DNA of 64,000 nucleotides, taken from the NCBI GenBank assembly GCA_965226055.1, contig CBDDCA010000006.1:320001-384000 (forward strand), given 5' to 3'. Shown in pieces: positions 5,357 to 11,830 of this stretch. Both the position numbers and the translations under genes were made by a program. Below the pieces are notes generated by a model. The model saw only the letters and a list, made by a program, of their open reading frames with translations. It was not told where the DNA came from and searched no databases. The number at the start of each line of letters is the position of its first letter. Within the stretch, counting starts at the first letter, position 1. This stretch comes from Spirochaetia bacterium. GTDB taxonomy: Bacteria; Spirochaetota; Spirochaetia; WTKD01; G963693115.

Positions 5357-5403
5357 AAAAAGAGACAGGAAAAAGGACAAAAAAAGAACAGAGAGGTACG
5401 CTT

Positions 5404-5994
5404 ATCGCAGCAGGATGGATAACAGAAAAAAAAGAGACAGTACTTACAACACGAGTATTTGATGTTGAAAAAAAAGAGTGTTACAGAACAAACACCTCTT
5501 TAGAAAAACGCAGTACCGTAACAAAAGACGAGCTTGTTACGTTTCATACCATTCACTCTCATGATTTTGTACAATGTATTCCTCTTATATACCGTAACGA
5601 TCAGGCACATGTAGTACTTATTTCCCAGTATCGCTATGGGACAGAAAACTTTGTTCTTGAATTTCCCGGAGGCATAGTCGATGCAGGAGAAAGCCCTCAA
5701 GAAGCAGCATTTCGAGAATTACAAGAAGAAACAGGCTATAAAGCAAAATCATGTACCCTGCTACAAGCAGTATACTCAAACCCTGCTCTATTCAACAATA
5801 GCTCCTATATATTTGTTGCGGAAGAATTAAGCAACACAGGAGAAAAGCACCTTGATGAACATGAAGACACGGATATTTCCATCATGCCTCTTGCACAGCT
5901 CTTACGAGAACAAAGCAAACATAATTTTACGCATGGACTTATGGTTGCTGGATTGTACTGTCTTTTAGAGTACCTAAAGAAAATTACACTGTAA
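5404..5994 (+). CDS. NUDIX hydrolase (ADP-ribose pyrophosphatase-like); start uncertain and non-canonical
   Basis: Frame open 5326-5994 with QYRY, LEFPGG, a full Nudix box (GIVDAGESPQEAAFRELQEETGY) and SNPALFNN. No in-frame ATG/GTG/TTG before 5884. The start given is an ATC 7 nt after GAGAGG. Confidence 0.8.
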   Translation: MAAGWITEKKETVLTTRVFDVEKKECYRTNTSLEKRSTVTKDELVTFHTIHSHDFVQCIPLIYRNDQAHVVLISQYRYGTENFVLEFPGGIVDAGESPQEAAFRELQEETGYKAKSCTLLQAVYSNPALFNNSSYIFVAEELSNTGEKHLDEHEDTDISIMPLAQLLREQSKHNFTHGLMVAGLYCLLEYLKKITL

Positions 5995-6085
5995 TAGACA
6001 GAGCCTCACTGAGAATAAAATATACTATTACTACTGTAGCACTTATATCTATAATATGATACCACTATTATAGTATACTATATAT

Positions 6086-6772
6086 ATGATGAAATTTCTA
6101 TTATTCCTTTCAATCATGAGTATCCCTATAAGCATAGGCTTTGCTACAGACCCTCACCTCTTTTTAGGAGTTAGTACAGATACAGCATTTTTTGGAGGAA
6201 ATTCTACACTTGAAGATAGTACAGATAATACAGGGACAAAGATAAACAATATCACTCTGTCCAAAAGTGCTTCTTCTCGAGAACTAGGGGTAGGATTTTT
6301 AATAGGGTATCAGTTTATAGAAATGCTTGATGTATCCATTAGATTAGGGGGGCATAGTACACTCACCTCACAAGCTATCGGAAGCCAAAGACTTATATAT
6401 TTACAGAAAAATGCCCTTTCATTTGAAATAAATACAAAAGGAACATCATACATTCATAAAAATATAGGAATCTACGCACAAGCAGGAATAGGATTATCAT
6501 ACATATATCTTACTAGTGCAGGAGGTAGCGAAGACATCGACTTAGGACTACAATGGAATGATATAGGAGGATATGTCCTCATTGGATTAGGAAGCTCCTT
6601 ACGTATAGGAGAAACAAACAATCATCGTTTCAGTCTCGGCTTACAGAACAAGTTTATTTTTCAGGACAACAAACAGTACTCTATTAAAACAAACAATGGT
6701 GGCAAGATATTCACTTTTGGAGAAACACACTTTCTATTAGGACTTCATTTTGAGTACACCTATTTCCTGTAG
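6086..6772 (+). CDS. Outer-membrane beta-barrel protein (small, OmpA/OmpW-like fold)
   Basis: Signal peptide, alternating amphipathic strands, aromatic C-terminal barrel signature LGLHFEYTYFL. Confidence 0.7.
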   Translation: MMKFLLFLSIMSIPISIGFATDPHLFLGVSTDTAFFGGNSTLEDSTDNTGTKINNITLSKSASSRELGVGFLIGYQFIEMLDVSIRLGGHSTLTSQAIGSQRLIYLQKNALSFEINTKGTSYIHKNIGIYAQAGIGLSYIYLTSAGGSEDIDLGLQWNDIGGYVLIGLGSSLRIGETNNHRFSLGLQNKFIFQDNKQYSIKTNNGGKIFTFGETHFLLGLHFEYTYFL

Positions 6773-6830
6773 AATGAAATTATATACGAAAGCATAAGAG
6801 TTTGTATTATCATTCATAGTACTATAATTT

Positions 6831-7109
6831 TCATTTACCTTTGAACTCTTCTAGTTTTGTTATCAACTCTTGAAAACTTTCATCGGTTGATATTTTATGT
6901 AAAGGTGAATTTTTACTTTTATCTATCATCTCTTCTAATTTAACTAATCCTAATACCATCAAGTCTATTATTGCCTCACTTGTCTTTGGCAATGAAGTAT
7001 TTAAACGCATTCTTTTTAGAATACGATAATCTTCCATCCTATTAAATAAACTATCTGGCATATTCATTACTATTCTTTGTCCTACTGTATTTTTTTGTGT
7101 TTGTTGCAT
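6831..7109 (-). CDS. Small protein, probable ribbon-helix-helix DNA-binding domain
   Basis: RIVMNMP strand, DSLFNRMEDY helix and SEAIIDLMVLGL helix; AGGAGA RBS upstream. Confidence 0.55.
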   Translation of the reverse strand: MQQTQKNTVGQRIVMNMPDSLFNRMEDYRILKRMRLNTSLPKTSEAIIDLMVLGLVKLEEMIDKSKNSPLHKISTDESFQELITKLEEFKGK

Positions 7110-7118
7110 TACATTCTC

Positions 7119-7358
7119 CTATCTTCCTAATATCATTAATACATTATCACCATCTTGAATAATTTTTTCTATACTATAGCCTTCAGACGAATGGTAGTTT
7201 AACCAATCAGATAAATTTACTGTGTATACATCAAAATTTTCTTCAAGAACTTCATTTATAGTAAATGTACTATCAGTATCATCTACTCCTTTAGGGTTTT
7301 TATATGTTTCCCATACCTTTGGGTTACTTAATTTTCCCCATATTGTTCTATACTGCAT
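7119..7358 (-). CDS. Small acidic hypothetical protein
   Basis: AGGAGA RBS before the ATG; 9 nt from the next gene; no motif recognised. Confidence 0.55.
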   Translation of the reverse strand: MQYRTIWGKLSNPKVWETYKNPKGVDDTDSTFTINEVLEENFDVYTVNLSDWLNYHSSEGYSIEKIIQDGDNVLMILGR

Positions 7359-7671
7359 AACATCTCCTTGTAGTTACTTTATTTTTTTTATGATTACTCA
7401 TTGCTTTAGAGCTGACATGGAGAACAAGCTAAGTCTCCCTTAATCCAATTATACAATACAGCATATACATTTGCTATTTATATACAATTAAATACAAATC
7501 AACAGTCACTCTTTTTTTGATAAATGAGAATAATTTTATAGCATAACTAGCCCATAAGATATTCATTATTTTTTGGTTTATATAATTACAGAAAGTATAT
7601 TTTTCATATCTATTTTTTCTTTTGTAACATTTAACTGAATCTATAGCTTGCAGAAACCCTTAATATTGCAA

Positions 7672-8196
7672 TTAACTATTAGAACCACAACAAATTTTAT
7701 ATTTTTTACCACTACCACAAATACATCTATCATTTCTACCAATATTTTTTATAGAATCATAAAATTCTTTGATACCTTCTATTCCATGAGACCATTCCCC
7801 CCAAGGAGGAACTTCATTATATTGTTCATAATATGCTTGCCAAACAAAAAAAGGACAAACAAAACATCTAATAAAATCTGATAATTTTTTTTGTTCTGGC
7901 ATAGATAATTCTAAACAACAACTACCATCATCATATATATGTCTATCGGCTATTTTTTCTATTCTATTCCCTGTTTCATATACTTTCCTATTTGCACAGT
8001 CTATTTTTATCTCATAAACATCTTTAACAAAAGTATTTTGATATCTTTGTTTATTGTTTTGATCTGGGTTATGAATTAATTTTTTACCATCATATACAGC
8101 ACAAACATTAATCTCACCTTTTACAAAATTTCCCTCAAGATATAAGTTAGGAAATTGTTTTTGTATATTTTCAATATCTATCTCCATATAATTCAT
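7672..8196 (-). CDS. Prokaryotic E2 (ubiquitin-conjugating-like) protein with C-terminal SEC-C motif; CBASS ancillary
   Basis: HIYDDGSCCL resembles the E2 active-site H..xxGxxCL; PWGEWSHG; SEC-C motif IGRNDRCICGSGKKYKICC; directly downstream of the CD-NTase. Confidence 0.8.
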   Translation of the reverse strand: MNYMEIDIENIQKQFPNLYLEGNFVKGEINVCAVYDGKKLIHNPDQNNKQRYQNTFVKDVYEIKIDCANRKVYETGNRIEKIADRHIYDDGSCCLELSMPEQKKLSDFIRCFVCPFFVWQAYYEQYNEVPPWGEWSHGIEGIKEFYDSIKNIGRNDRCICGSGKKYKICCGSNS

Positions 8197-8229
8197 GATT
8201 AACTGAAGTATTTACTGTTGTCTAGCTTA

Positions 8230-9153
8230 TCACCATAATATGGTGAAATATGGCTTGGTAGCACCTGATATAAATGGTATATTGTCATCTAATGTACCAA
8301 AATCATCCCCAAAAATTTCTCTCCATTTCTTAACGCTTTCATTATGATCATTGCTATTGTATGCTTCATTTATTTTATCTGTATACAGTTTTATCTTGTC
8401 TCGAAAATTTGAATATTTATCTTCATCCCAATGTCTATTGAAATCTTCATCATCTAATACAGGATTTTTTATAGTAGGCATATGTTCATTGTTTTGTAAA
8501 AAATCATTTAAGTTATTCATTATATGCTTCAAAGCAGTAGGTAAATCTGAAAATGAAACACTATCACTATCTTTAATTTGATTTCCTAAAAGAGTTGTCA
8601 ATAAAATGGACTTACAGCTAAAATTTGTTTTAATATCTCTCATATACTTGACTAATTTAATGACTTTCTTTAAATATCCTCCAGATTTTTCATTTTTTCC
8701 TATTAACCAATTCTTATAAGCAGTTCCATCCGTTATTTCAAATTCATTTTCCTTTTTATTACAAATATACTTTTTTTCTATACAAGGAACAATATCTAAA
8801 TGAAAGTCTCCGCTATAATCAATAGTTACACAGCGAGTTTTTCTTTTTACTATATCCTTATAGTTACCATCATCTTTAAATAGTTTATATATATTCTCTA
8901 TATATTCCTTTGCTTCCCAATCTAAATCTTCAATATAAACCATTATATCAGCATCAAAATCTTTCTCTTTTGGTGGCTTAATAATTGTCTTACTGCCATA
9001 AGAGCCTTGATTTTCTATTGCTTGATAACCCTCTAAATTATTTTCTAAAAACCCTTTAATACAGCCTACTCTCTTTTGAAGTGTCTCTAATCTAGTTTTA
9101 TTTAAATTTACTTTTTCTTCCATAAATTCATTAAAAAATTTTTCATGTTTCAT
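8230..9153 (-). CDS. CD-NTase (cGAS/DncV-like, SMODS) of a CBASS system
   Basis: QGSY...TIIKP...DFDADI, RCVTIDY, FHLDIVP, KLVKYMRD, NPVLDDEDF, WREIFGDDF; ATGA overlap with the patatin gene. Confidence 0.92.
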   Translation of the reverse strand: MKHEKFFNEFMEEKVNLNKTRLETLQKRVGCIKGFLENNLEGYQAIENQGSYGSKTIIKPPKEKDFDADIMVYIEDLDWEAKEYIENIYKLFKDDGNYKDIVKRKTRCVTIDYSGDFHLDIVPCIEKKYICNKKENEFEITDGTAYKNWLIGKNEKSGGYLKKVIKLVKYMRDIKTNFSCKSILLTTLLGNQIKDSDSVSFSDLPTALKHIMNNLNDFLQNNEHMPTIKNPVLDDEDFNRHWDEDKYSNFRDKIKLYTDKINEAYNSNDHNESVKKWREIFGDDFGTLDDNIPFISGATKPYFTILW

Positions 9154-10079
9154 GATATATTCTCCTTATAGTTTAAGTTTAACATTTTTTTTATTTCATC
9201 TCTATGTTCTAAAAAGCATTTATCAGCAAATACTTTTAAATTATCCAATCCCTCTACTTTATCTATCTGATGATTTATAGAACTATTAACCCTCAAATAA
9301 TTATCTCCTAAAATAAGGCTACTCATATTTGTGGAAGACTGAGTAGATAATTGTAAAATATATTCTATCAAATTTCCTATTTTCCACCCATTTATAAATC
9401 CCCAACATTTTTTATTTTTATCATATTGTAAGTTAGTATCCCCTGTACCTATTGAAAGTATTTTTATATTCTCTATTTTTTTATTAAATTTTTTCTCTGT
9501 CATTGCTTCGGTTAAACCAATAATAGAAGGATTATTTGCCCATAACCCACCATCTGCTAATAAATATTTATTCTTCATTCTAAAAGGATTAAAATAAATT
9601 GGAGCAGAACAAGAAGATAAAACAGCCTCAGCTAATGGAGTAGTTGCATCTCTAACATATTCATCACTTGATGGATAGTTTGATTTATGAATATACACAG
9701 AACCATTCAGTACATCCGAAGCAATAATCATCAAAGGCTTATCTATCTTTCCTAATTCAATATCTCCAAAAGTTTTACTAAGTATTTTACCTAAATGTTT
9801 ATTATTGTACTTACTCCTAAATAAACCGCATCGAAATATTGTTTTATGAAATATTTTCTTTCCTTCTTCTTCATATATCTTTATCACTTCATCTAAGGAA
9901 ATATCTAGAGCAATAGCACTTGCCAATATTGACCCCGTGCTTGTTCCTACAATTAAATCAAAATACTCTTTTAACTTAATATCAAAACATTCTTCTATTT
10001 TTTTCAGAATAACAGCAGAGTATAAACCTCTTATTCCACCACCATCTAAAGACAAAATTTTAAATTTTTCACTCACCAT
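9150..10079 (-). CDS. Patatin-like phospholipase, CBASS effector (CapV-like)
   Basis: LSLDGGGIRG, GTSTG nucleophile, ADGGLWANNP, LSIGTG; first gene of the CD-NTase operon. Confidence 0.92.
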   Translation of the reverse strand: MVSEKFKILSLDGGGIRGLYSAVILKKIEECFDIKLKEYFDLIVGTSTGSILASAIALDISLDEVIKIYEEEGKKIFHKTIFRCGLFRSKYNNKHLGKILSKTFGDIELGKIDKPLMIIASDVLNGSVYIHKSNYPSSDEYVRDATTPLAEAVLSSCSAPIYFNPFRMKNKYLLADGGLWANNPSIIGLTEAMTEKKFNKKIENIKILSIGTGDTNLQYDKNKKCWGFINGWKIGNLIEYILQLSTQSSTNMSSLILGDNYLRVNSSINHQIDKVEGLDNLKVFADKCFLEHRDEIKKMLNLNYKENIS

Positions 10080-10309
10080 AAATCCTATTTCTCTTAATTC
10101 TATTACAGCCTTTTTTTTCTGATAAAATTTCCTTTGCTCCTATATACATACTATCACACTTATTGTTTTTTTGTTAATATGTTTTTATTGTTTTTTAACA
10201 AAAGTTATTAATAACATTTATGCTTTGAAATCGTAACTCACACACTCATACTATTTCTGTTTTTGTAGTATACTATTACTATCTACTAACGAAAATAAAG
10301 GAGATTATT

Positions 10310-11785
10310 ATGCCGCTTAATTTTACTTCTAAAGTATTTAAGAAAGAAAAAGTTATCCTTGCTGATACCACAGAATATCTTGTTCCCGGAGGAAGATCAA
10401 AATTTGAACTTCTCGAAAAAGGGTTTGAAGGTATAAAACAAATTGGGGTTATTGGTTGGGGAAGTCAAGGTCCTGCTCAAGCTATGAATCTACGTGATTC
10501 TCTTGAACACACAAACATCAAAGTTGTACTTGGATTACGAAAAAACAGTACATCATGGAAAAAAGCAGAAAAAGCAAAGTTTACCACCGAAAGCGGTACG
10601 CTTGGAGAAATGTTTTCAGTCATCAAAAAAAGTGATTTGATTGTTCTCTTAATTTCTGATGCTGCTCAAGCAACCTTGTATAAAGAGATATTCAAGGCCA
10701 TTAAACCAAATGCTACCCTAGGACTTTCTCATGGTTTCTTACAAGTGTATTTACAAACACTAGGAGAAGAATTCCCTAAAAATATAAATGTAATTGGAGT
10801 ATGCCCAAAAGGTATGGGACCCTCAGTTAGACGCTTATATGAACAAGGAAAAAAAATAGATGGTGCTGGAATAAACACGAGCTTTGCTGTTCATCAAGAT
10901 GTAACAGGAAAAGCAACCGATTATGCTATTTCATGGGCAGTAGCCTTAGGAGCTCCGTTTAGCTTTTGTACTACGCTCAATAAAGAATGTTTATCTGACA
11001 TATACGGGGAACGTGGTATTTTACTTGGTGCTGTACATGGCATTGTCGAATCGCTGTATAGATATTTTGTTGATAAAGGGATGGAAAAAGACACCGCTTT
11101 CATTAACACAGTAGAAAGTATTACTGGTCCTATTTCACAAAAAATATCCCATGAAGGTATACTAGCTGTATACAAAAGCATGTCAGCTCAAGATAAAAAA
11201 GAATTTGAAAAAGCATATAACGCTAGCTACTTTATTGCAAAAGAAGTACTACAAGAAATCTATGACGAAGTGTCTTCAGGAAATGAAGTTCGTTCTGTAG
11301 TATATGCAATGAAAAGAATGGAAACATATCCTATGGGCATTATTGATAACACAGAAATGTGGACAAAAATAGGAAAAGAAGTACGTGCTAACAGACAAGA
11401 AGAAGCAATACCAATTCACCCTATTACCGCAGGTATTTATATTGCAACCATGATGGCACAAGTGGATATATTATATGAAAACAAGCATTCATATTCTGAG
11501 ATTGTCAACGAGTCTATCATTGAAGCAGTGGATTCACTCAACCCTTACATGCATTTTAAGGGAGTAAGTTACATGGTAGACAACTGTTCAACGACTGCTC
11601 GACTTGGTTCAAGAAAATGGGCTCCACGATTTGACTATATGTTATGTCAAAATACCTATGTGGAACTAGACGGAACTAAAGCTAAAAACTCAAAACCAAT
11701 TACAGCATTCAAAAATCATTCTGTTCACCAAGCAGTGGACACATTACTCAAATATCGTCCTAGCATAGACATTGCAGTAAAATAA
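10310..11785 (+). CDS. ilvC: Ketol-acid reductoisomerase, long (class II, plant-like) form
   Basis: IGVIGWGSQGPAQAMNLRDS, LSHGF, CPKGMGPSVRRLY, SDIYGERGILLG, VDNCSTTARLGSRKWAPRFDY. Confidence 0.95.
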   Translation: MPLNFTSKVFKKEKVILADTTEYLVPGGRSKFELLEKGFEGIKQIGVIGWGSQGPAQAMNLRDSLEHTNIKVVLGLRKNSTSWKKAEKAKFTTESGTLGEMFSVIKKSDLIVLLISDAAQATLYKEIFKAIKPNATLGLSHGFLQVYLQTLGEEFPKNINVIGVCPKGMGPSVRRLYEQGKKIDGAGINTSFAVHQDVTGKATDYAISWAVALGAPFSFCTTLNKECLSDIYGERGILLGAVHGIVESLYRYFVDKGMEKDTAFINTVESITGPISQKISHEGILAVYKSMSAQDKKEFEKAYNASYFIAKEVLQEIYDEVSSGNEVRSVVYAMKRMETYPMGIIDNTEMWTKIGKEVRANRQEEAIPIHPITAGIYIATMMAQVDILYENKHSYSEIVNESIIEAVDSLNPYMHFKGVSYMVDNCSTTARLGSRKWAPRFDYMLCQNTYVELDGTKAKNSKPITAFKNHSVHQAVDTLLKYRPSIDIAVK

Positions 11786-11792
11786 CCTCTCT

Positions 11793-11830
11793 TTGTACAT
11801 CTCATATACAATTATGTATGAGATGTACAA
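11793..11830. terminator. Stem-loop between convergent ilvC and crtI, probable bidirectional terminator
   Basis: 14-bp inverted repeat TTGTACATCTCATA / TATGAGATGTACAA. Confidence 0.7.

Follow-up and report, generated by a model that had tools for sequence, protein, structure and literature searches.

Type II CBASS operons conjugate their CD-NTase through a C-terminal Gly or Ala. Those with Cap2 (E1-E2) and Cap3 (JAB) (Nature 2023, PMC10097602) have both an E1 and a JAB, whereas the operon reported here, from an uncultured spirochaete, has neither. It resembles the E2-CBASS of Serratia marcescens (SmCdnG-SmE2, PDB 8HSB), which likewise has a stand-alone E2 with a catalytic Cys and His and no E1 or JAB. 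According to the Serratia reports (bioRxiv 10.1101/2022.05.25.493364; PMC12948482), the cyclase ends Y405-G406-E407, this aromatic-small-tail terminus threads into the E2, and the E2 trims whatever lies beyond the small residue, its cysteine stripping everything after G406, even fused MBP or GFP, and linking to G406. The same work (bioRxiv 10.1101/2022.05.25.493364; PMC12948482) found that linkage was abolished by G406V and G406L and kept by G406A, and that G406R abolished immunity to T4. The premise of the original prediction, that a small C-terminal residue is needed and that tails can be trimmed, is backed by the Serratia work (bioRxiv 10.1101/2022.05.25.493364).

There are also differences. 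The CD-NTase of the window (the whole 64,000-nucleotide stretch of DNA analysed) is ~100 aa shorter than its Serratia counterpart (307 versus 407 aa), the effector is a patatin rather than 2TM-SAVED, and the E2 ends in a SEC-C zinc motif, where that of Serratia has a Lys/His-bearing loop covering the active site. The attachment residue is Gly in Serratia, but mostly Ala in the subfamily to which the window belongs (86/119 matches listed), and lies outside the reading frame in the window. Fused CD-NTase-E2 proteins of the same family, such as P0009, P0011 and P0025, at 510-537 aa, share with the window the CD-NTase core and the SEC-C-tailed E2, and bear a KP[Y/H]A motif; they are, however, single chains with a linker of ~35 aa, whereas the window has separate genes and a shifted motif. 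A further parallel is C-terminal phase variation, in which, as in the window, only the tail of the protein is changed, through a shift of frame near the end of the gene. Phase variation of this kind, reportedly treated by Snyder and colleagues in 2010, uses a long homopolymer tract, whereas the window site has no such tract. Searches of the literature returned no frameshift of a CBASS cyclase tail by title or abstract and, by title, no work on a SEC-C-bearing CBASS E2.

The operon and its island

Three genes lie head to tail on the minus strand, encoding a patatin phospholipase, a CD-NTase and a stand-alone E2, within a segment that differs in a same-genus genome:

6785..10240, no strand assigned: variable island that includes the CBASS operon together with two small ORFs, with flanks common to a same-genus genome (G001)
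9150..10079, minus strand: patatin-like phospholipase, CBASS effector, 309 aa, apparently intact
8230..9153, minus strand: CD-NTase ORF as encoded, 307 aa, ending K300-P301-Y302-F303-T-I-L-W307 (SMODS, PADLOC)
7672..8196, minus strand: stand-alone E2, 174 aa, SEC-C zinc motif at the C-terminus, apparently intact

The patatin gene matched Pfam Patatin (3.5e-26), the PADLOC phospholipase effector (2.8e-86) and NCBIfam CBASS_lipase NF041079 (‘CBASS cGAMP-activated phospholipase’; 246 bits versus a cut-off of 200). The CD-NTase matched Pfam SMODS (3e-30) and PADLOC cyclase PDLC00793 (7e-122), and its nucleotidyltransferase core (GS...DxD...D) is kept, G50, S51, D67, D69 and D120 being invariant among 30 aligned sequences. 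The E2 was recognised by PADLOC (E2 PDLC00872, 2.3e-26), Pfam seeing SEC-C only (4.5e-9), and its residues H86, C93 and C94 are invariant in an alignment of 16 sequences. The SEC-C zinc motif occupies E2 residues 150-174 and is conserved across the E2 subfamily alignment. An AlphaFold2 model of the E2 (mean pLDDT 77.7) aligned best with UEV and E2 domains (Tsg101 UEV, Z 9.1; UFC1, Z 7.8; E2S, Z 7.6); the Serratia E2 chain, 8hsb_B, aligned with a middling Z of 7.2 (rmsd 3.3, 109 residues). Foldseek against the PDB gave weak UFC1 matches only (E 0.1), and searching the PDB with the E2, by sequence or by profile, recovered SEC-C peptides only and not the Serratia E2.

Neither an E1 domain nor a JAB gene was found among the operon ORFs. 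Because a CD-NTase, an effector and an E2 occur together with no E1 or JAB gene, the locus, judged by its gene content, is an E2-only (type II-short) CBASS, which is a known kind of system; the earlier assignment of the cyclase as the CD-NTase of an E2-associated CBASS is likewise borne out by its domains and by PADLOC. A promoter and terminator scan of the operon found sites no more frequent than in shuffled sequence, and no intergenic terminator.

The same-genus genome matches the window at 93% over 5400-6784 and at 97% over 10241-11800; between these flanks it has ~1.37 kb with a split IS1595-family transposase (L084:135-1500), where the window has 3.46 kb. Housekeeping genes flank the region: ilvC on one side and, upstream, polA, coaE and a gene for a SPOR protein. 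When 40 related genomes were searched with the CD-NTase, 39/40 gave no match, and the one hit, in a genome of the same class (G017), was distant (28% identity, E 2.7e-6). These comparisons together indicate that the CBASS operon is an accessory island at a variable site. The site itself is a variable hotspot that lies between an outer-membrane-like gene and ilvC. Downstream of the CBASS genes, still within the island, lie the two small minus-strand ORFs, 6831-7109 (92 aa) and 7119-7358 (79 aa); neither had a family match, apart from a faint hit to a family of phage repressors (phrog_4738, E 0.0056) with the 92-aa ORF.

The CD-NTase C-terminus and its displaced frame

A search of 5.8 billion proteins with the CD-NTase yielded 1884 matches at E <= 1e-20, the best non-self match having 69% identity. 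E2-linked CD-NTases end in [K/R]-P-[Y/H/W/F]-[A/S/C/G] followed by a short tail. A small residue (A/S/C/G) follows the aromatic in 114/119 matches listed, and Phe occupies that position in 0/119. Counted by regex among the 119 matches listed, the residue was Ala in 82, Ser in 19, Cys in 6 and Gly in 3; four KPYASYD-type rows corrected by eye were added, giving the 114/119 and raising Ala from 82 to 86. The five exceptions have R, L, L, K and no motif at all. Across 80 homologous loci, the motif was present in 56/56 with a separate downstream E2 (55 by regex and one, L041, by eye) and in 6/7 fused CD-NTase-E2 genes (the exception having L), compared with only 1/17 loci without an E2. The tail following the small residue is most commonly a single residue (36/56 loci), and the longest tails checked by eye are of 10 (P0026, P0061), 11 (P0052) and 13 residues (L027); lengths of 32 (one locus) and 11 (two loci) in the 80-locus set are regex values only.

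Against this background, the window CD-NTase is the sole E2-linked member in this comparison with a bulky residue at the motif site. A conjugation-type C-terminus is absent in frame, where Phe303 stands instead, and Gly is found in the +1 frame only. The coding (minus) strand at the end of the gene reads AAG CCA TAT TTC ACC ATA TTA TGG TGA, and the ORF at 8230-9153 ends, as first read, in KPYFTILW*. The following features lie at or beside this end:

8237..8253, minus strand: two copies of CCATATT with TCA between them, of a repeat class found at chance frequency
8230..8246, no strand assigned: perfect 17-nt palindrome TCACCATA-T-TATGGTGA, from sequence and folding
8199..8240, minus strand: putative remnant of the original tail, +1 frame Y-Y-G-D-K-L-D-N-S-K-Y-F-S-stop, from translation and likeness to homologues

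The sequence facts in the earlier description of this site all stood. CCATATT does recur at a period of 10 (8253-8247 and 8243-8237), the proposed hairpin at 8246-8230 is a perfect 8+1+8 palindrome, and the +1 frame does run through ...SPYYGDKLDNSKYFS* to its termination codon (8201-8199), leaving 2 nt to the ATG of the E2 gene (8196). Folded as DNA, the hairpin has a 7-bp stem (-6.8 kcal/mol, z = -2.4; 3/200 shuffles equal or better). The motif said to have been lost, KPYYG, is on the other hand not the family motif, which is [K/R]-P-aromatic-small. Aligning the C-termini of the nearest homologues, the check proposed with the original prediction, found no Phe at the position in any of the matches listed.

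What the +1 frame encodes resembles the family. The nearest homologues (67-69% identity) end KPYCDKY, KPYCDRY and KPYCDKHR, the window +1 frame reads P-Y-Y-G-D-K, and one homologous locus (L023) reads T-K-P-Y-G-D, resembling the +1-frame Y-G-D; the Gly codon at 8234-8232 is likely to be the conjugation residue of the original tail. Gene spacing can be compared in the same way. Among the 50 placeable loci of the 80 (17 without E2, 7 fused and 6 with an unplaced E2 start falling outside the count), the distance from CD-NTase stop to E2 start has a median of -4 nt and extremes of -59 and +21 nt; 48/50 lie within -30 to +10 nt, and 0/50 at >=33 nt. In the window this distance is 33 nt as encoded and 2 nt via the +1 frame. 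Since the family motif, the displaced Y-G-D-K and the abnormal spacing occur together, a net +1 frameshift directly after the Lys-Pro-Tyr codons is well supported and, reading from sequence, we regard it as highly probable. The frameshifted tail of the original prediction is in this sense sustained: the encoded tail is out of register with the family, and the +1 frame holds both Gly and normal E2 spacing.

The local structure of the site adds little of its own. Ten period-10 7-mer repeats occur in the window versus 5.3 +/- 1.9 in 20 Markov simulations, and nine palindromes with 8-bp arms and loops of 0-3 versus 7.4 +/- 3.9 simulated; stretches of twelve open codons occur at 54-56% of all window positions (the window being 35% G+C). 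Because such frequencies match chance, neither the repeated 7-mer nor the palindrome nor the openness of the +1 frame was accepted as evidence by itself.

The extra bases that break the frame are situated between the Tyr codon (8250-8248) and the Gly codon (8234-8232), and more than one change would restore a motif. Removal of 13 nt gives KPYG-DKLDNSKYFS, the best match to KPYCDK and to the codons of L023; removal of 10 nt, the version first proposed, gives KPYYG-DK...; and removal of one T from the TTT run at 8248-8246 gives KPYS-PYYGDK..., with a family-like motif. The 1-nt and 13-nt removals thus restore a family-like motif at least as well as the 10-nt removal. An exact tandem form of the 10-bp duplication originally described was rejected, since the units CCATATTTCA and CCATATTATG are identical at 7/10 bases only. 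With the nearest homologue only ~69% identical, the event could on sequence grounds be of 1, 10 or 13 nt and is not polarised by the comparison. Relative to a KPYG ancestor, the left arm of the palindrome, which matches the Tyr-Gly-Asp codons in reverse complement, is extra; nine of the added bases, TCACCATAT, pair in the same way with the neighbouring ATATGGTGA, which would fit, as an inference only, a template-switch insertion. A single-protein scan of genome contigs for closer CD-NTase relatives and a comparison of the exact 44-nt stretch with metagenome contigs both gave no match.

Conjugation and the rival explanations

A net gain of 1 nt after Lys-Pro-Tyr would push the Gly and the disposable tail into the +1 frame. 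The CD-NTase tail is nevertheless predicted still to dock on the E2: a complex model of the two window proteins scored 0.76, compared with 0.00 for the best of 3 controls. The mark for this score is reached by 116/157 solved complexes and 2/215 mismatched pairs, with at least 90% contact agreement between runs and a partner pLDDT of at least 80; the pass may partly reflect likeness, because a related complex (8HSB) is already solved. Modelled contacts join CD-NTase residues 289-305 with E2 residues 37-45, 83-88 (including H86), 93-97 (including C93 and C94) and 110-116. By analogy with Serratia, Phe303 would sit where the acyl-donor residue belongs, and for that reason the E2 is proposed to be unable to trim the tail or to make a thioester or isopeptide link; E2-dependent activation would then be lost, and CBASS disabled or attenuated. 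Conjugation has thus probably been lost, by analogy with the Serratia E2-CBASS, the chemistry having a precedent in one distant system that is linked to the window E2 by fold only (Z 7.2). As all three components (patatin, E2 and CD-NTase core) are intact, the operon may still function in the absence of conjugation, or the mutation may have arisen recently. The whole reading, in which the CD-NTase tail is frameshifted, conjugation is lost and an acquired defence island is undergoing ordinary decay with no designed switch, is the one that we favour, with moderate confidence.

It has to be weighed against the idea that nothing has been lost, KPYFTILW being tolerated either because this E2 subfamily accepts the tail or because the CD-NTase signals without conjugation. 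Tolerance of non-small tails is possible because 5/119 matches listed lack a small residue, having another residue or no motif; the three operon genes are otherwise intact, and the complex model docks the tail with residues 303-305 included. However, Phe was found in 0/119 matches listed and a small residue in 56/56 separate-E2 loci, it is difficult to account for the +1-frame Y-G-D-K and the spacing of 33 versus 2 nt unless a frameshift occurred, and bulky substitutions abolish linkage in Serratia (bioRxiv 10.1101/2022.05.25.493364), so that we consider full function unlikely, if still deserving of some weight. A quite different explanation is that the sequence itself is wrong, for example through a superfluous T in the TTT run. 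Long-read assemblies often contain homopolymer errors, and loss of one T would yield the family-like KPYS-PYYGDK...; yet a run of three Ts is a weak error site, and the allele recurs in public contigs. Contigs of 3 runs (3 samples from one study, which may include the source of the window) span 7600-9300 with 0 differences and no gap, and a second study, whose run has a different organism label, contributes a 151-nt contig that matches 8157-8307, likewise with 0 differences. With contigs of 3 runs and that of the second study identical at the site, an artefact is hardly credible.

The same contigs bear on the reversible slippage switch raised in the original prediction, in which the 10 nt between the CCATATT repeats would be gained or lost, toggling conjugation and CBASS priming. 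The two 7-nt direct repeats, being at period 10, could allow exactly 10 nt to be deleted, with KPYYG-DK... as the result, but the motif of the family is not KPYYG, 7-mer repeats of this kind are as frequent as chance predicts, and a slippage-prone tract (a long homopolymer or tandem units) is absent, Tandem Repeats Finder reporting no repeat at 8000-8500. With units 7/10 alike, moreover, the present allele is not regenerable by simple duplication, because the three unmatched bases (TCA versus ATG) are not templated in tandem. The contigs, which came from 4 runs in 2 studies, showed no indel variant, but contigs drop rare variants. With no repeat tract and no allele mixture in contigs, the switch is unsupported and, in our judgement, very improbable. 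We would give equally little credence to a one-way version, in which a retained attenuating mutation uncouples the cyclase from the E2 and rare deletion at CCATATT, or loss of a T, re-arms CBASS in a subpopulation, acting as a low-frequency ‘safety catch’ on abortive infection in a host-associated spirochaete. Programmed +1 ribosomal frameshifting, which would yield some full-length protein with a KPYS... tail, could exploit a +1 frame that is open until 2 nt before the E2 start; inspection, however, showed UAU-UUC-ACC to lack a slippery site that permits re-pairing, the A-site codon to be neither rare nor a stop, and the upstream sequence to contain no Shine-Dalgarno-like stimulator, and the homologues are read in a single frame, none needing recoding, which leaves the idea scarcely plausible. 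No RNA data set was listed among the public runs carrying the sequence.

Uses of the motif and relatives of the locus

If the favoured reading of a frameshifted tail is true, the window carries a natural allele of an E2-only CBASS that lacks the conjugation residue but is intact in other respects, and would offer a ready-made negative control for Serratia-type self-conjugation in this subfamily. The subfamily is little studied, and is marked by a short CD-NTase, an attachment residue that is mostly Ala, Ser or Cys and not Gly, and a SEC-C E2. The motif rule (56/56 separate-E2 loci versus 1/17 without an E2) also provides a simple annotation check for broken systems. Beyond negative-control and annotation use, what the reading describes is ordinary decay of an acquired defence island.

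The fused CD-NTase-E2 forms comprise eight proteins among the matches (P0009, P0011, P0025, P0068, P0094, P0100, P0101 and P0107) and seven of the loci (L013, L052, L059, L074, L079, L081 and L082), each a single polypeptide of 493-560 aa with a SEC-C-tailed E2; since they keep KP[Y/H]A in the linker, trimming would require the E2 to cleave the chain to which it belongs. Among the loci without an E2, 5/17 end directly after the catalytic core, and most others have another C-terminal domain. In the former (L051, L062, L068, L070 and L078) the CD-NTase has nothing beyond the core, and both a tail and an E2 are lacking. Nine of the others (L053, L056, L058, L061, L063, L067, L072, L073 and L075) have CD-NTases of 443-492 aa with an extra C-terminal domain of ~150 aa, and a GRSGRF-like stretch is found at the end in 6/9 of these. 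By title, many of the loci in the range L003-L082 come from metagenome-assembled genomes labelled Poribacteria, Latescibacterota, Caldilineaceae, Dehalococcoidia or Candidatus Spongiihabitans, groups that are often found in marine sponges.
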